Source of the DNA: Bispira polyomma
Taxonomy: Eukaryota
DNA: 64,000 bases
Reading direction: 5' to 3'
NCBI GenBank assembly: GCA_965649765.1
Contig: OZ287754.1
Span: forward strand, 1,550,001-1,614,000
The translations under genes were made by a program, and so were the position numbers. Positions 14,590 through 26,144 of the stretch are shown piece after piece (positions within the stretch are counted from its first letter, which is position 1; every line of letters starts with the position of its first letter). The notes under the pieces are model-generated. The model had not been told where the DNA came from and ran no database searches. It saw only the letters and a list, made by a program, of their open reading frames with translations.

Positions 14590-17500
14590 AGTGCACGGGC
14601 CACCTTAGATAGGAGCAAAGGTGATATGAGAATGATATTTAAAACACAGTTGTAAGGCACTTTGGGCATTTATTATATCATCTAAGATCCAATCTTAATA
14701 GGTTACAACATACAACATTTACTACTAATGTACATGAGGTGGTGAGCTTATATATTAAGGTCACCTTACATCTAGATTTTATCTTTAACAGTAATTGACT
14801 TAAGGCCACCATAACTTATTACAAAATGTTTTAGGTTTACTAAAACAAGTTAATTTAAGGTTACCTTAACTTGAATACTTCTTTTGATCTTTAATCAAGT
14901 TTACTTAAGGTCACCATAAATTAGTGATAAGTTTTTACTAAAGTAAACATGGTGACTTAAGGCCACCTTAGTTTAAATACTGACTTTTAATTTTAAAGTG
15001 AATTTCAGATGAGCTTAACCAAGCTTTATGGTAAGGTTACCTTATTGTAATCTTTGAAATGTAACGGTAAAGTTCTATTTTCTACTACTACTGATGGCTT
15101 ATACTATACATTATAAAATATGGTGTGGACATATAGTATTTACAATGCCCAAACGCCATACTGGATGTTAATGTGGTATTATTTGTTGTAGAGACTTAGC
15201 TACAGATGCCGAAGCATTAGGGGTGGATTGCAGGTATGCCCATACCACTGAGGATCTCCATCCCCCATGAGCCATTATGGACTGGAGCTCTACATTATTA
15301 TCAAACACCAGTGTCACTCCTGAGCGTCTGAATGAATGAAACGTGAATGACTGTGGGTTAAGAGATAAAGATACAATTATTTCCCTAAAAACCTGTCTAA
15401 CCTTATATGCTGTTAGAGGCACTAATTTACCTTGTACTTTGTACATAAATACTGGCGAATCCATTTTGTTTTTATTAATTCTGAACATACTTTTAAGAGC
15501 TGCTACAGGACATAACAGAGAACGTCCTAGCTCCGGTAACTGTACTGCATGGAAATGATTGTACTTTTGTAAAGTTTTTGCCCACCGAAGTACAACATGT
15601 GCCCCAGGGGGAACCCATACAAAATCCTCACACGTCAAGTGCCTCTGAGGATTGAAATTACTAGCACTGGTTGGAACCAGGTTTGAGAGCCAAAAGAAAC
15701 AGAAAACGGCAGTTAAAAATAATGCCTTATAGATATATGCATGTGGGAATGCAGAAACATGATGCAGGATAGCTGTGAGAATAGGGATGGTGATTATCCC
15801 ATTAAATGTAGGAGCATAGGGGTGGAAAGTGAGAGAGACTTGAAAAATAACTTTATTTGAGGGTGAACAAAACCACTCACAGGATAATCCCATAGATGAA
15901 AGTAATATTTAATTGCTAAGAGGTAATTTTGAATGGATGGTGGTTTTAGCCCCTTCTTGCTTTGTTCTTACAGTCATGGCACTTTCTAGGCTAGTGTTGG
16001 CAGCCTCAGAAAGGAAATTTTGAATGTGTGAACCTGAAATTGTAATTAAAAAGCAGTATTTAATACAAAGTCTCCCGGGGTCACTTCCCACCATGTCTTT
16101 TGTATTACTTGCTCATGGACTTTTACATTTTTGTACCCTGGAATGAACATACGTGACAGGTAGTTGGCTTGCACATTCTTAACTCCAGCTATATGCACCA
16201 CATCGGTTTTATGTTATACCGTGCTGTTTCCAGCCAAATTGATCTTCCGAAACCAGGATCATGAAACCGACAGGAGTTAAGCCCTGAAACCACTGCCCCA
16301 TTTTCACACCATAATTTGACAATTTTGGAAACATGTACCCCATACCCGTAAGGCAACTAGTATGTTCCAAATTTCAAAGTGGACTATTCCAAATGTTTTA
16401 GGTTTGTTATCGGGAAGGGACGCAGCATAAACATTATCAGCCCACATGGCTCCAATTCCCAAAAGGGATGCATTAACAAACAACTAAAATACCGGTCCGT
16501 CTCTTTTTAATGCATTTCAACCACCCAATTGAATCTTCCTAAAAATTCATTGAACCAACTTAGGTCGGCCCTGAAATCCCTGGTGAGGATTGAGGAAAAG
16601 CCGCACAGGTACGACACACCGATGCACATACAGCAGCTTTACCAAAATTGACTGTAAGTCTCTTCTTGTACAATGAGTTTTACAACGTCTGGAATTGTAA
16701 GCGTACCTTTTTAGGCATTAACTAGAATGCCCATACACACACATTCATGAGCCTGGGGAAATACTTTTTTGGGGTTTATGGGCAACCCTAAGCTTTTAAT
16801 TAACCGATAAAAGTGATCAAAGGAATCTCTTGCTTTTTCAACCATTTCCACGGTGACAATGTCGTCGATACAATTCCATATTTGGTATTGTTTGTTTTTC
16901 ATTAGTTGTCTAATTCTGTCTCTGACTCGTTCACACATGGCTGTGCCGTGTTTATACCCCATCATGACCGCCAAATCAATGTAGGTGTTATTTCTTCATT
17001 TTAGCCCTGTGTATTTATAATCGCTCGAGTCTATACGCAGGTTGCAAAACGCACTCGAAAGGTCCAGCTTATACAGTTTCGCAGTGGGGCCTATCTCGTT
17101 AATGCGACTGACTAACATGTCAACAGTGTGAGGGTAAGAATGAATTCTTGGCCATCATAAATGCCATCTGTAACTACACTATTTAGTGAGGTAGCATCAT
17201 GGGGCTATGAGAGGTCAACTTTGGGACGAGTCATGACTGGTGAACAGTGTAATTGCCTATAGGGTTTTTCTTGAAATGGACCCGCGATTGCTTTATGCAA
17301 CCACTCCGTAATGAAATATTTGTCAACACTTTATGGGAATTGCTCAGCACCATCATAATTTTTAACGTCACTGTTAAATATAAAGCCATCAGCCTTCATG
17401 TCTAAGGGGAAGCCGAATTCCAGATACTCAGGTAACAAAATATCCCCATCCCTTTCAAAACTTGCTGCTATGCTTCTATATTTAGTTCAGAGGGAACAGG

Positions 17501-18240
17501 CACGCATGCGCCTAAGTAATTAGGGCACCCCTTCCTAGTGACTGTATCATGCGCTACCATGGCCTGTTGTTCTAACGAATCAAATTGCAAAGTTCTTCTT
17601 GAGGCTGGGATTCCCCCCACAACATTATAAATGCAATTGAAACCAAATGTTTTACTTAACTTTCAGGAAACTTGTTTTTATTGTCATATGAGTGGTTTGA
17701 TATGGTAATTTCCACCAAGGCCAAATTGCCAATTAGGGGTTCACCCTGAATGATTGCTTTGTTTTTGACTCTGCGTGAGTGACCCTTTGTGGGTGTATCA
17801 CATTGATTAGAAGATTTTTGAGGGGGGAAAGCCCTCACACCTTTGTCTCTTTCAGAGACCAGTTCTTTTATCTCATCCCCCCCCTCCCCCCTGTACAGGG
17901 GGGGAGGACATGCCACTTCTACTATCAACACCTCGCTCTAACTCGCAAACACCCATTATGCAGTTTAGTTTTCCCACATTCAATGGTGCTATAAGTAGAC
18001 ATGGATTGCTAGTAACTTTTAGCAAGAACTCCGCTTTACACAAATTAGCATTGATCTTCCCGCCTTTACCTTTAAAAGGCTGGAAGGCCGCTGCCCCCAC
18101 TTTACATATTTCATTTATTATTTTAATATTTTTACCCTGCTTTTTACAAACACTGTGCTTGGCGAGCATGGGTTTTAACACATCACAACTTTTACGTTTT
18201 ATAAGACTATATGAAGCAGCACTCTCTCCAGTAAACACTT
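14590..18240 (-). mobile_element. Tyrosine-recombinase retrotransposon (DIRS/Ngaro-like) copy A, decayed
   Basis: RT relic (GYKHGTAMCERV, NCIDDI, LGLPINPKK), RNase H-like region, then tyrosine recombinase; boundaries approximate. Confidence 0.85.
15168..15893 (-). pseudogene. Tyrosine recombinase of element A
   Basis: FTFHSFRRSG and HGGWRSSVVWAY present; first catalytic Arg appears as W (FFWLSNL versus FLRISNL in copy C). Confidence 0.88.
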
Positions 18241-21229: not shown

Positions 21230-21342
21230 ATACGGAAGAGTATAAGGGCCAACCTTTTTTTTTTTTTTTTTTGGAATTGCCGAGATAATATCTCGATAAA
21301 TCGAGATAATTTAAAAAAAAAATTTGAATTGTCGAGATAATT
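21230..21342 (+). mobile_element. MITE left arm
   Basis: TACGGAAGAGTATAAGGGCCAACC-T(n)-GAATTGCCGAGATAATATCTCGATAAATCGAGATAAT; inverted match to 24775-24995. Confidence 0.75.
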
Positions 21343-21349
21343 AAGAAGA

Positions 21350-22027
21350 TTTAAGAAGACCACCAAACCAGTGACAGACAACCCTGTCATGGTAACTCAG
21401 TACAACCCAAATAACCCCAACATCAGGGAAATAATCAACAAAAACTGGAAATTCATCCAGAATACTGATGGCCTTGCCAATATCTTCACTAAACCTCCCA
21501 TAATAGGTTACAGGAGATTACCAAACCTCAGGGACCAATTATCAAGTTCTAAGATTTGCTACCCCCCAGTAAATAGTACAACTATTAAAACTATACCCAA
21601 AGTTTGTACAAGACTTGGAAAATGTACTTATTGTCCAAGTGGATTATATCAGCCACCACACTAATAAGCAGTTCAAATGCATATCTATTCCACCTAATCC
21701 CAGACTAACTTGTGAACTCAAGAATGTCATTTATGTAATCACATGCAAAAAATGTGGATTACAGTACATAGGGGAGACTAAAAGACCCCTTAGAAACAGA
21801 ATGTATGAACATAGAGCAAGTGTCACTAAACCTGGTCAGAATAAACTGACCCCAGTGTCCAGACATTACAGTACTAACATACTGTCAGTGACATGGAGTT
21901 TAGTGTACTGCAATGGCTAGGCCACACAGAAGACCCAAATCGTACACATAATCGCAAACGACAGGAAATGTACTATATTTGGGCCTTCCCTACTATTGCA
22001 CCAACAGGCATTAACCTACATGTTTAG
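21350..22027 (+). mobile_element. Penelope-like element, 5'-truncated: linker plus GIY-YIG endonuclease
   Basis: PIIGYRRLPNLRDQL, CTRLGKCTYC, LTCELKNVIYVITCKKCGLQYIGETKRPLRNRMYEHR, EMYYIWAFPTIAPTGIN; two frameshifts. Confidence 0.92.
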
Positions 22028-22134
22028 ATTACAGCCCTCTACTGTATTAGTTGATACCCCTAATACCCCCTACATATTTATCTATATATTGGGCTGACTC
22101 TAAACAAAGTGTCTTAAATACATATCTATGTCAG

Positions 22135-22230
22135 TAATGACGCCATACACACATCATAAACGACTTACGTCATATATTACGTCACTATAAGATCGTTACC
22201 ACCTTCCAAGGTGAACTGGAAACGTCATAA
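22135..22230 (+). promoter_or_regulatory. Putative promoter: CRE/ATF-like cluster plus TATA-like box
   Basis: TTACGTCA at 22165 and 22177, TGACG at about 22138, ACGTCA at about 22222, TATAA at 22186, all in CpG-poor DNA. Confidence 0.4.
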
Positions 22231-22326
22231 CATTACCAGGTGATTGTTTTTACCTAGTCAACCTAGGCTGATTTGAAAATTCATTACTTAGTTGGATTCA
22301 CAGAGTGAACACCTATCTTAAACAAA

Positions 22327-23268
22327 ATGAAGAACTGTACTTGGTTTTCCTGTGCTATTTGTCATAAGACATACTCTAGAAGAGCTAGTTTGAGGAGACA
22401 CACAAAAGTTGTACATTTACACCAGACATTTAAATGTAACCTGTGTGATAAAAAATTTAAAAGGAGTGACTATTTAATTAAGCACCAGAAAGCCCACCAT
22501 CAAATGGGTTGTGATGATTTCAGACAACTTCTGGATTGTGTAGACAATGAAATCAGCTCACCAGAGGAATTACCTAATTTTTCCCTGGATCAGTTCCTGG
22601 ATCACAGCCCAGATATTACTATACAGGCATCCCCATCAGGATATTCTCTGTCCTCAAGTCTTCTTGCACCTGGTTGCACTTATGAAGCTCCTACCTCCTA
22701 CCCACCTTTGGTAACCTCTGACACTATCAGCTGCCTTACCACAGTCAACATATGTACACAAACTGATGTAGTCTGTATCAAAAGGAATGCTACAGTTACT
22801 CATTCAGGCGTTAACACCCCCTTTGTGAGGACCCGGGAAGCCAGCTGCCAGACTGACAACCCCACCTGTGACAGTGCCACTAACACTGACATGATGATTC
22901 TGGAAGATAACAGAATAGCACTGAACAACAGCTGGGACACCACCCCCACCTCAGCACCTAGGACTCCAACCATTGACAGCTATTTCACCTCCTCATCAGG
23001 ATCTGATGGATCATTCATTGAGGCTTGCAACATACTGATCAGCTCCTCACCACCACTTACTCCGGACTCTGAGTCAGTGGCATCCCCACCATCTGTTACC
23101 ACCAATACCACCAAGGTACACCAGTCTGAGGACCCACTACAGTCCCCCCAGTTTGATTATCTCTCAGAATCCTTCCATGAAATTCTCATGAACTTATCCC
23201 CACCAGATGATATCATGGCCAGTATTAGCAACAGCAACTTTGACAGCCTCCTGGATATCAGTTATTAA
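22327..23268 (+). CDS. Intronless protein with two C2H2 zinc fingers and an S/T/P-rich acidic tail (313 aa)
   Basis: CAIC-x12-HTKVVH and CNLC-x12-HQKAH; longest ORF in the window; AAAATG start context; AATAAA right after the stop. Confidence 0.8.
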   Translation: MKNCTWFSCAICHKTYSRRASLRRHTKVVHLHQTFKCNLCDKKFKRSDYLIKHQKAHHQMGCDDFRQLLDCVDNEISSPEELPNFSLDQFLDHSPDITIQASPSGYSLSSSLLAPGCTYEAPTSYPPLVTSDTISCLTTVNICTQTDVVCIKRNATVTHSGVNTPFVRTREASCQTDNPTCDSATNTDMMILEDNRIALNNSWDTTPTSAPRTPTIDSYFTSSSGSDGSFIEACNILISSSPPLTPDSESVASPPSVTTNTTKVHQSEDPLQSPQFDYLSESFHEILMNLSPPDDIMASISNSNFDSLLDISY

Positions 23269-24317
23269 AATAAATAACTCACCAGGATATTCATTTATTT
23301 TCTTCATCCAGTGGTGTAAGTTTGTTTTATTTATATATATATATAATTTAAAAATATTCTTGCAATATCAACAAAATGACATTACTTTATAATATATTTG
23401 CTTTAATATTATTATCCGTTTTAATTATCAGAATTAGATAATTATCCGGGATAGAGAAATCTCTGATTTCTTCACATTTTAAGTTTTATAAACATTAATT
23501 ATAAACTAATTAAAAAATGCATTAAGTATTTTTATGTGTTTTTCTGGCCCCCTGATGTGTATCAACCCACACATTACTCACCTATAGTCCTAATTCTCAA
23601 TAGGTTTTTTTAAGATATGATTCAGTTTATCATTATTCACACCGTACAACCCATAATTGGTAAAAGTACATACAGTACATACACAAATTTTGAGTACATT
23701 TTTTTGATATATCTAGAATTATACCTTCTAGCTTGACCCACTTATCCACCAAAATAAGTGTAATCACATGTACCTAATAATGGATTCTTTTGCCTCCTTA
23801 TCCAAGTATAAGAAGGTGTGATCTCATGGTAAAATCTAACATAAAACCAGATTATAACTGCAACCCATGGGGCTACCATGTAATGCTCATCATGGATTTT
23901 CTGACCTGGCCACCACCCCCTGTCACTTGCACCCACATAGCTTTACCCACTAGATAGAGTATGGTATTATATCTGACTTAATTGATTTACCTGGACTGTG
24001 CTCACCAGCATCTGTTTACCATTTCAACACACCCAACCCACATAAGTCATTATGAGGGCTATACGTTTGAATGCAATATGAGTGTTGCCATGGAAACAGA
24101 CCTATTTTGTACATAACCATTAATCATCATGACACTCAAAAGGTCAACCCTTAAACAGAAAAAAAAATTTTTCTAGTTTTTTCCAATGAAATAAACCCTG
24201 CACCACCTGGCACCTACCGCACCGCCTAGCACCTTCTGCAGCTCTGCACCTATATGGGTGGTGCCCAACGGTGTAGGTTTTTGTACCTAATGGGCAAAAA
24301 TCCTAAATATCACATCA

Positions 24318-24374
24318 GCCTCTGAAGAGACCTTTGACCAATACCTCAAGTCGAAATATATACAACATAAGGGC
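24318..24374 (+). ncRNA. Hammerhead ribozyme-like motif (Penelope type I, possibly degenerate)
   Basis: gcct-CTGAAGA-GAC..ttga..tcaa..GTC-GAAA-TATATA...agggc: core boxes, stem II and a palindromic minimal stem III; stem I register imperfect. Confidence 0.55.
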
Positions 24375-24489
24375 AATTTGACTATTAACAAATTTCTCTC
24401 ACACCAAGTATTAACTCTGTTAAAATTGTAATTAATAGAAAAAATGACAAATACTGACCAATTTTGTTGAAATTGACTTTTGTTAAAAG

Positions 24490-24708
24490 CCTGATTACCT
24501 ACTTTTGACCCTATGACTGTTTGCTGATTAACTACTTTTGACCTCTATGACTGTTTGTGTCTAGCTCTAATTAACTACTTTTGACATCTATGACTGTTTG
24601 TGTCTTGCTCTAATTAACTACTTTTGACCCCATGACTGTTTGCTGATTAACTACTTTTGATCTCTGTGACTGTTTGCTGATTAATTTTGACCCGATGACT
24701 GTTTGTGC
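24490..24708. repeat. Minisatellite, about 6 copies of 30-45 bp
   Basis: attaactacttttgacc(t)ctatgactgtttg recurring. Confidence 0.9.
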
Positions 24709-24774
24709 CCTTTTCCATGTTAGCTGTTCAGTTGGCCACTCGCACACCTGCCTTCTCCATGGTAGACAATTAAT

Positions 24775-24995
24775 ATGGTGACAATTAAAAAAAAATCCTT
24801 TTAATTATCCCGATATATCGAGATATTATCTCGACAATTAAAAAAAAAAAAAAAAAAAAATTTCTAAATTATCTCGATTTATCGAGATATTATCTTGACA
24901 ATTCAAAAAAAAAAAAAAAAAAATAAAATTTCTAAATTATTTTGATTTATCAAGATATTATCTTGACAATTCAAAAAAAAAAAGGGTTGCCCTTT
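24775..24995 (-). mobile_element. MITE right arm (3 internal repeats)
   Basis: ATTATCTCGATTTATCGAGATATTATCTYGACAATT-A(n) x3, ending GGGTTGCCCTT. Confidence 0.75.
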
Positions 24996-26144
24996 TATGA
25001 ATGTATACATATCAATATACTATGTGCTAAAGTATGTTTTGTATTTTGAGGTGATATCACTTGAAGAGGATGTATGACATATGATGAAGTATAACACCTG
25101 GGGCTTATAGCACGGATCGTCCTGAGAGGCAAGGTTTGGTTGCTGTTGGACATGGCCTTGGCCTGTCCGATCACATTACTCATGGAAAGTTATATGCGTG
25201 TTTAAGCAGCTGCTTGCTTCTTCATGTTGTGCCAGGAGATTGTGCTGGATATATTCAGGGCTGGACGAGTTTCTGGTTGAACATACATGGTTATGGCTTG
25301 TTGTGGGATCGACTGGAACTTATTATCGTGAACAAGTGCCATAGACTGTTATCACATTCATAGTCTGGGTGTAGCATAGCTATACTCAGCAACATGAGTG
25401 AGAAATGATAACAAGGGAAGAACGGGACTGGGAACTAATTGTACATAGTTTAACAAGACTAATTTTAGACTAAAATGCTAGTTGAATGTTTTAACCTGTG
25501 TTAGGGTCAAATAAATTGCCCCAAAGTGTTATACATTGTTGTCTCAGTTGTTGTGAATATAGAAATACATCTAGCATACAAAGGGTCATGGTCATGCCAA
25601 AATCTTAGGTCGTTTGTAACCACGGGCTTTGAGCTTTGGACATCCTGATAACTGAATTTTGACTTGTAGACTGAGTAAATATTCAGCACCTAAAAAGCAG
25701 TAGATTACACGCTTAAACAAATCAAAGAGAAAAAGATCACAGGTTTTTCCCTGTTGAGTTTAGATCACTAAAAACACTTTCTGGGTTTAGGAGGAAACTT
25801 AACATCTATCTCCTCAATCTCTCTTACCCCTTAGTTACTTTTCTGTGGAGCACCACATTCTCTCTTGCAACCTTGCCTATACTTTTTGGACTTCTCGATT
25901 GGTTAATTAATAAATATTAAAAACCCCAATAAATTAAAATTCTAGATCGACAGCACCAACAACCTATGGCACCTAAATAGATACTTTTTTAGTTTTTTTG
26001 ACAATTTTTGTTAATACATACAAATTTCTTTCTGGGATCCACGCATAAAAACCATTCAAAGTGTGATGCTGTATTACAATTCATTAGCTATCATAAATAA
26101 TTATAAGCTGCACAAACACATAAAAAGTGAAATTCAAGTTGGAA

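Follow-up and report, generated by a model that had tools for sequence, protein, structure and literature searches.

Penelope-like elements with an inherited zinc finger gene

A clade of Penelope-like elements (PLEs) that almost certainly has its own, selected gene for a transcription factor-like protein was recognized from a 64,000-nt stretch of Bispira polyomma contig OZ287754.1 (positions 1,550,001 to 1,614,000; hereafter the window), part of a 1.04-Gb animal genome. The PLE copy in the window is 5′-truncated, occupies positions 21356-24422 only, and includes an intact open reading frame (ORF) for a protein with two C2H2 zinc fingers (the finger gene). An earlier note on this DNA had proposed a Penelope lineage with an accessory transcription factor-like gene, and the proposal is now borne out by about ten families (A to J) with the same order of parts: hammerhead ribozyme, ORF1, an ORF for reverse transcriptase (RT) and GIY-YIG endonuclease (EN), a region rich in sites resembling the cAMP response element (CRE), the two-finger C2H2 gene, and again a hammerhead.

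The finger gene was found to be multicopy and to reside beside element genes. The genome search suggested in the earlier note returned 38 matches, of which 24 (window copy included) extended over 800 or more of the 981 nt with an identity of 91-100%, and protein searches of the genome detected 127, 161, and 76 matches to the finger genes of other families. In these families, EN, RT, ORF1, or a hammerhead adjoined the finger gene in 19/20, 49/50, and 17/19 sampled loci, where the three samples overlap in part. The four loci without an element neighbor (L087, L172, L310, and L317) were broken or partial, and no intact stand-alone homolog was present among the sampled loci. Two outcomes had been named beforehand as speaking against the proposal: a single-copy ORF with syntenic orthologs lacking the Penelope element, and other copies of the family that lack the gene. 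The ORF occurs in many copies in many families. The second outcome was encountered in part, as many copies end 54 nt past the EN stop codon and hence are without the finger gene. These copies belong to the same family at 96-99% identity and owe their ends to priming at the first of a pair of end sites (see below); they do not constitute a finger-less lineage.

Relative to family A, the other families displayed identities of 55-77% for RT and about 30-55% for the finger protein. The finger proteins of the clade begin with MKNCTWF, MWFTC, MDYKARF, MDKAKYI, or MEDKTRQ, with finger 1 following directly, and no likeness to the histone H3 tail was found in these N-termini. The RT and finger trees agree where resolved, with (A,B), (C,D), and the G group in both and with H and I outside; the finger tree was made by a quick method, and in the trees long rows without names were retained and rooting was at the midpoint only. 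The finger gene is limited to a clade, since a PLE family at 41% RT identity was without it in 8/8 loci and had 370 nt from EN to hammerhead. In this finger-less family (L258-L265), ORF1 is long and overlaps ORF2, a GAAAC hammerhead is present, and the direct repeats measure 450-650 bp.

Relatives of the finger protein were reached only by a full hidden Markov model scan. In a scan of 1.84 billion proteins, a tail profile that excluded the fingers detected 30, of which 22 had E<1e-10; the last of the 30 is spurious, and several of the matches bear the same two fingers in front. Ten of the 30 were looked up and found to be ENA records, one of them a cluster whose 22 members lie on several long contigs. 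One relative (P0122) was at most 43% identical to anything in the host genome, and RT relatives from the same source as these records interleave with the families at ≤75% identity. Judged from the tail-profile relatives, the divergence of P0122, and the interleaved RT relatives, the finger-gene clade is present in the assemblies of other organisms, where it is known from proteins alone. Word-indexed protein searches yielded one generic finger protein, and a finger-less alignment used in the same way gave nothing; likewise, the ESM Atlas returned generic C2H2 clusters and the PDB generic fingers only.

Organization and classification of the full unit

A full unit of 5,864 bp was read on natural copy L036 (forty 10-kb loci examined), in which approximately 300 nt with the CRE cluster precede the finger gene and about 1 kb extends from the finger gene to the hammerhead. 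Whole units were also apparent in three tandem arrays, at 5.97, 5.43, and 5.64 kb. ORF2 is intact in natural copy L044, where it encodes 801 amino acids with RVT_1 and GIY-YIG domains both over the cut-off, and the RT/EN ORF has 3259 relatives at E<=1e-50. Characteristic features of endonuclease-bearing (EN+) PLEs were found, including (i) CCHH with two cysteines between GIY and YIG (VIYVITCKKCGLQYIGET in the window and in L044); (ii) a CX5CX2C linker between RT and EN (CTRLGKCTYC in families A, H, and I); (iii) direct or inverted pseudo-long terminal repeats from tandem or partial-tandem copies; and (iv) a type I hammerhead in the terminal repeat. The invariant hammerhead core and stem I were detected in 10/10 motifs, as were stems II (3-6 bp) and III (4-9 bp), which are kept with differing sequence. 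No hammerhead family was matched in an Rfam scan; the ribozyme was established by its core, its stems, and the variation between families. In place of the single ORF of an EN+ PLE, three are conserved (ORF1, RT/EN, and the finger gene). With this exception, the element is by its sequence features an EN+ PLE of the Neptune/Nematis type. The type was assigned because the CX5CX2C linker is described, in the available text of PMC8557442, as the mark of these clades; the RT trees were built with relatives not assigned to named Repbase elements.

ORF1 (259-270 amino acids, 270 in family A; for example, at L101:5395-6204, minus strand) is conserved in the clade, with long helices and basic patches, and its product is probably an RNA-binding or chaperone protein. 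Comparison with Pfam revealed no family, the helical model (pLDDT, the predicted local distance difference test, of 68) had no fold match at E<=0.001, and the leads in the ESM Atlas were all under 0.9. GT/AG intron candidates were noted before the finger ATG and, in family A, between ORF1 and ORF2. These candidates are not conserved and join no frames, and joining of ORF1 and ORF2 by splicing or frame was not supported.

Three side observations were made. In the RT/EN ORF of family A, recurrent single-base indels were detected at one short run (nt ~2004-2010) in about ten copies, which may represent either an indel hot spot or an inherited defect. Element copies of identical score were found at C2:44927154 and C2:44992198; at C5:38180204, 38380266, and 38645225; and at C3:237169 and C15:235070, which suggests segmental duplications or duplicated haplotypes in the assembly. 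Finally, L043:1-2451 (minus strand) holds ORFs that we take to resemble the DNA polymerase region of Polinton/Maverick-type elements, together with a Cys/His-rich ORF.

Selection on the finger gene

Patterns of coding change reveal that the finger gene is under purifying selection like RT and that this selection acts on the active element lineage. Among polymorphisms shared between copies of family A, the ratio of nonsynonymous to synonymous polymorphism (pN/pS) was 0.28 for the finger gene (33 synonymous, 33 nonsynonymous; P 5e-7) versus 0.32 for RT/EN, and for private changes it was 0.63 and 0.71, respectively. Synonymous sites are saturated between families (33-57% protein identity); the closest pair gave a ratio of nonsynonymous to synonymous divergence (dN/dS) of 0.20, and in this pair the fingers were more constrained than the tail (dN 0.09 versus 0.15 overall). 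Full-length ORFs of family A were intact in 11/22 cases for the finger gene and 3/17 for RT/EN. If the finger gene decayed as fast as RT/EN, a fraction of 0.32 would be intact (P = 0.057), so the finger-gene count is close to what its shorter length leads one to expect. Based on the shared and private pN/pS values and the intact-ORF counts, selection on active elements maintains the gene, which degenerates once a copy has inserted.

The dN/dS analysis among copies that the earlier note had recommended points to selection on the gene in the element lineage. The idea that selection or domestication of the window copy is signaled by an open cargo gene next to an endonuclease with frameshifts was not supported. 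Half of the full copies are intact, so the open frame in the window is unremarkable; moreover, private decay is alike in the two genes, and the window copy is 5′-truncated with a dead hammerhead. The single-copy status and locus-specific conservation of a domesticated host gene were not observed within this genome. One comparison runs counter to equal treatment of the two genes: disabling mutations were less frequent in the finger gene than in RT/EN (0.67 versus 1.22 per kb, P 0.016), a contrast that is confounded by the choice of copies and by the indel hot spot in RT/EN and that provides a weak hint of something extra.

Two end sites flank the finger gene

The ends of copies were found to cluster at two sites. 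End site 1 accounted for 23/31 outer ends, at +51 to +63 after the EN stop codon and inside a conserved stem-loop with an AC-rich loop (~22078-22090 in the window), and end site 2 for 26/31 outer ends, at +49 to +57 after the hammerhead cut. The two sites are 2.35 kb apart and flank the finger gene, which explains the many gene-less copies. Among 21 head-to-head insertions, 16 pair site 1 with site 2, none uses the same site twice, and five have an irregular end. The same two end sites were identified in families B, C, G, H, and I. The site 1 stem-loop had a z of −3.7 in the window and −0.8 to −4.5 in the families, and single folds gave an outer stem and inner hairpin in most, not all, families; from the site 1 alignment, RNAalifold retained only a 5-pair stem with little covariation.

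The 5′ ends of copies were also found at the hammerhead cut, including 6/30 within 0 to +8 in family A (four insertions) and 8/55 within −1 to +4 in six other families (seven insertions, in B, G, and H; P 2e-9 under a uniform null). These ends are evidence, read from genomic copies, that cut RNA may serve as template in vivo.

Predicted DNA binding by the two fingers

The finger protein is composed of tandem canonical C2H2 fingers with conserved base-contacting Arg, Lys, and Asn residues, and in AlphaFold models the fingers were ordered (pLDDT 84-95, residues 1-60) and the tail mostly disordered. In each family a cluster of short repeats was detected within 140 nt upstream of the hammerhead, and the repeat type followed the residue at position 3 of finger 1. 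With Ser at this position (families A, B, I, and J), 7-11 GGTG and no GGAG were counted in 8/9 rows, and 0/300 shuffles reached the observed count of these GGTG clusters. With Asn (C, D, E/F, and G), 2-5 GGAG and 0-3 GGTG were counted in 10/10 rows, with P <= 0.03 alone in four of the ten; with Tyr (family H), the repeat was GG[GA]GC. Position −1 of finger 2 is Arg in most families and Gln in H; in finger 1, position 6 is Arg or Lys, and so, with few exceptions, is position −1. According to the C2H2 code, as given in the available text of PMC12264921, Arg or Lys reads G and Asn reads A; these residues would read G-G-N-G, so that Arg(−1) of finger 2 together with Arg6, Asn3, and Arg/Lys(−1) of finger 1 predicts G-GAG. 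The sites are arranged as direct and then inverted copies in families A and G and mostly on one strand in C, H, I, and J.

In 7/8 families scored, sites matching the type of the respective family recur 40-70 nt before ORF2, two to four per family. This arrangement echoes the one before the hammerhead, and the cluster may be a second finger-dependent promoter. In the 110 nt before ORF2, these sites were seen to be followed by an ACCTCAG-like word (L101, L081, L213, L090, L219, L222, and L208).

Several points weigh against reading these clusters as sites for the fingers. Six of the ten Asn rows and the Tyr row were not significant individually, and one Ser row (L083, 0 GGTG) was excluded, its hammerhead match not being the element's. 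Ser is "versatile" in the code as available in PMC12264921, so G-GTG is compatible with it and not predicted. The residue at finger 1 position 3 changes only twice on the tree (Ser to Asn and Ser to Tyr) and, with only two changes, any lineage-specific feature would co-vary. In addition, the finger-less outgroup has four scattered GGTG/CACC in the same AC-rich window (L259 and L261), the cluster before ORF2 was not significant in any single family (P 0.06-0.58), and the strict pattern of site plus ACCTCAG was found in 5/8 families only. We regard the co-variation of residue and motif as a strong lead, not proof, of a match between the fingers and the repeats.

Ahead of the finger gene, the CRE-like cluster of family A includes eight ACGT-core sites versus 0.43 in shuffles, and 4-8 such sites were present in 10/10 families. 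The CRE part of the CRE/TATA-like cluster reported in the earlier note is thereby supported, but the TATA part is not, since the box is not conserved: the candidate TATAAGATC of family A is TTACGATC, TTAAGATC, or AAACGATC in other families and was rejected.

A predicted LC8 partner of the tail

Six tail columns (Q145, T146, G161, N163, T164, and Q175) were invariant in 16 sequences, forming QT, GxNT, and Q, and such columns match the anchor pattern of LC8 clients in the available text of PMC6607443. TQT-type anchors in a disordered region, often multivalent in LC8 clients, are present in the tail. When modeled with host LC8, the finger protein scored 0.67 versus 0.05 for the best of three controls, with residues 138-146 and 178-187 contacting one each of two grooves; the runs agreed in at least 81% of contacts, and the partner pLDDT was 51-53. 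The mark for this score was reached by 51/78 solved pairs and 2/108 mismatched pairs. Based on these models, the TQT-type motifs of the tail are predicted to bind LC8. Counter to this prediction, the score may stem from a resemblance to LC8-peptide complexes of solved structure, the modeling task differs from those used for calibration, and LC8 is not bound by many TQT peptides, as the available text of PMC6607443 states. Six near-identical single-exon LC8 (dynein light chain) ORFs were found in the host genome, on different contigs or arms (L121-L126).

The copy in the window

The window copy is a dead, decayed Neptune/Nematis-type PLE that shares 91-99% identity with copies dispersed elsewhere. 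Its block had been placed between the two arms of one miniature inverted-repeat transposable element (MITE), and this was confirmed, with the PLE inserted into the MITE. The left arm of the MITE (21230..21355), with its terminal repeat and palindromic 64-68-bp subterminal units, was the insertion target and lies outside the element, as does the rest of the MITE (24421..24997), composed of a 33/43-bp minisatellite region and the right arm. The minisatellite, included in the element block by the earlier note, belongs to the MITE, as it was found without a PLE in 9/9 other MITE copies examined. Judged from L268, the PLE replaced ~500 bp of the MITE interior, and no target duplication was seen. 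MITEs of this kind, with the same subterminal units and internal minisatellite, are abundant (760 candidates, 40 scored; e.g., L037 and L267-L275).

All parts of the element with an assigned strand are on the plus strand. The 5′-truncated ORF2 remnant (21356..22027) holds the end of the RT thumb and linker, with CX5CX2C at 21605-21634, followed by GIY-YIG with CCHH (PF01541, E 3.9e-6) and a TAG stop codon at 22025-22027. The end of the GIY-YIG ORF at 22027 and its two frameshifts were correctly described before; the frameshifts correspond to 11-nt and 4-nt deletions, and an extra 3-nt deletion is in-frame. The stop codon is spanned by the RNA stem-loop (22021..22108), whose AC-rich loop is of 9 nt and which holds end site 1. 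The CRE-like cluster (TGACG/TTACGTCA) at 22135..22230 is the putative promoter of the finger gene at 22327..23268. The latter starts with ATG and encodes 313 amino acids, with two C2H2 fingers at residues 7-58 (PF00096, E 8e-11) and a disordered tail including TQT-type motifs at residues 138-146, 170-177, and 178-187 and acidic/hydrophobic C-terminal helices. Both the intact 313-residue ORF and the AATAAA after it had been noted; the AATAAA (23269..23274) abuts the stop codon and is a possible poly(A) signal, the conservation of which between families is not clear. Further downstream, the GCACC/GGTGC (G-GTG-C) repeat cluster at 24200..24275 would comprise finger-protein sites and part of the ORF1 promoter. 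The hammerhead-like motif assigned to 24318-24374 stood as to its core and not as to its intactness: the type I hammerhead (24318..24376), with stem I GCCT, core CTGAAGA at 24322, stem II, and GAAA, is broken by a 12-nt deletion that took the 3′ arm of stem III and the cut triplet. Unlike the 10/10 motifs of other copies and families, which have complete folds, it does not fold fully. A tail to end site 2 (24377..24422) forms the 3′ end of the window copy; in full arrays, the ORF1 start of the next unit follows directly.

Outside this copy, a tyrosine recombinase ORF (Phage_integrase, E 1.2e-4, under the cut-off) with RT-like fragments upstream was observed at 15168-17937 on the minus strand and is probably, from its sequence, part of a decayed DIRS/Ngaro-type retrotransposon. 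The region ~43000-64000 has a GC content of 0.37-0.39 and a steady skew over 20 kb and is possibly a long-period tandem array; Tandem Repeats Finder, with a period limit of 500, lists nothing there.

A proposed regulatory circuit and its alternatives

From the arrangement of gene and sites, we lean toward the view that the element encodes a trans-activator of its own promoter. A broader proposal, for and against which we see about equal weight, is that of a "complex" Penelope, a clade of non-LTR-type retrotransposons that would encode a sequence-specific factor co-evolving with its sites into family-specific activator/promoter pairs and that would replicate from hammerhead-cut RNA primed at two flanking stem-loops. 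In the trans-activator scheme, host basic leucine zipper (bZIP) factors would drive the finger gene from the CRE cluster, and the finger protein, dimerized or tuned by LC8 through its TQT-type motifs, would bind the G-G-N-G cluster just upstream of the hammerhead. Binding would activate the promoter before the hammerhead, leading to transcription of ORF1 and RT/EN, and perhaps also the smaller promoter before ORF2. The hammerhead would trim the RNA to a unit starting at ORF1, RT would prime at both stem-loop sites on two target nicks to give head-to-head insertions, and read-through RNA of tandem arrays would bring the promoter and finger gene into new copies.

The sequence does not distinguish activation from repression, and a rival account, less probable than trans-activation but of real weight, starts from this point: the gene would be selected by the element, yet its binding would repress or limit the element, or the repeats would be RNA signals of ORF1/RT and the fingers would act on host genes. 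In favor of this account, the sign of regulation is not given by sequence, and the activity of the host factor ASCIZ drops with rising LC8 occupancy in the available text of PMC5963919. The direct-then-inverted sites of families A and G could pair as RNA, and the link of residue and motif is supported by just two independent changes. Set against these points are the placement of sites mostly on one strand in C, H, I, and J, as in binding-site arrays; the middle base of the repeat, which follows the C2H2 code in the Asn families; and the acidic/hydrophobic content of the tail (disordered in the AlphaFold model), such tails being more typical of activators.

It is improbable that the protein serves chiefly to oppose silencing by the host through sequestering or co-opting LC8, the fingers doing no more than tethering it to the element. 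Within the tail, conservation is highest in the multivalent TQT-type motifs, which are predicted by the models to fill both LC8 grooves, and an LC8-dependent transposon-silencing complex is reported for Drosophila in the available text of PMC7861614. But LC8 is abundant, with its six near-identical intronless genes here making it hard to deplete, and the fingers are more constrained than the tail. That silencing complex is, moreover, of the fly system, which further counts against this account. Passive capture of a host transcription factor gene, with the window copy domesticated by the host, is largely refuted and seems very remote. It would accommodate the intact window ORF, the slightly lower disabling rate of the finger gene, and the movement of host genes in trans by PLEs (available text of PMC3846280). 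It fails to accommodate the constant position of the gene among ~150 matches spread over many families; shared changes that show the same degree of selection as those of RT/EN, with half of the copies intact; a window copy that is nearly identical to dispersed ones, truncated, and endowed with a dead hammerhead; and the lack of an intact stand-alone homolog among the sampled loci. Trans-activation of the element's own promoter is the account that we prefer among these.

Comparison with known systems

According to existing descriptions, a canonical EN+ PLE has one ORF and depends on the host for its transcription. If the trans-activator reading is true, EN+ Penelope elements can control their own expression through an inherited, selected transcription factor gene, and the natural variants (Ser, Asn, and Tyr at finger 1 position 3 versus GTG, GAG, and G[GA]G sites) make this claim directly testable. 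A PLE with an inherited C2H2 or other transcription factor gene was not found in the literature searched, though Repbase/Dfam and the supplements of PMC8557442 may list such families.

Compared with the Neptune/Nematis EN+ PLEs in the available text of PMC8557442, the element shares the RT with C-terminal GIY-YIG and CCHH, the CX5CX2C linker, the hammerhead in the terminal repeat, and the tandem and inverted copies; the upstream ORF1 is shared with fish Neptune, where it is unannotated in the accessible part of PMC12602865. It differs from them in that a conserved two-finger C2H2 gene, separate from the other ORFs and preceded by a CRE-rich region of its own, is located between EN and hammerhead. 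The repeat region is ~2.3 kb here, whereas 0.37 kb lies between EN and hammerhead in the finger-less family of the same genome. Extra coding sequence is also known from Terminons, Chlamys elements, and Adineta Penelope, but these are telomeric Athena-type, N-terminal-EN, or one-off captures. The accessory functions named for them are nucleases, esterases, Rep, coiled-coil, zf-CCHC, and protease, and the available text names no canonical EN+ PLE in which a sequence-specific C2H2 factor is inherited (PMC6431247, PMC8557442, and PMC3846280).

The copies bear on two questions about PLEs, namely whether the hammerhead cuts the template in vivo, on account of the 5′ ends at the cut, and how inverted repeats originate; the inverted terminal repeats would derive from two fixed priming sites, one used on each side. 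In PAc (Poseidon of Anolis), two end sites in or beside AC-rich stem-loops likewise set the genomic ends. The PAc sites are tens of nucleotides apart (the "tail"), whereas here they are separated by 2.35 kb, flank a gene, and are paired head to head; and in PAc unprocessed RNA is the main template with no reads at the hammerhead cut, whereas here 5′ ends pile up at this position (PAc data from the available text of PMC11167929).

ASCIZ/ATMIN, as presented in the accessible part of PMC5963919, is similarly a C2H2 factor with a long disordered tail and several LC8 motifs; it differs in being a single-copy host gene, and the likeness to the finger protein is one of design, with generic finger matches. 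The closest functional analogy is Tas of foamy viruses, encoded by a 3′-end gene with an internal promoter and both binding and activating the element's promoters (available text of PMC8670036, PMC4929722, and PMC13220597). Tas belongs to a long terminal repeat retrovirus, no homology is claimed, and the activity of the finger protein is a predicted one. If the "complex" Penelope reading is true, these elements would provide a parallel to the complex retroviruses.

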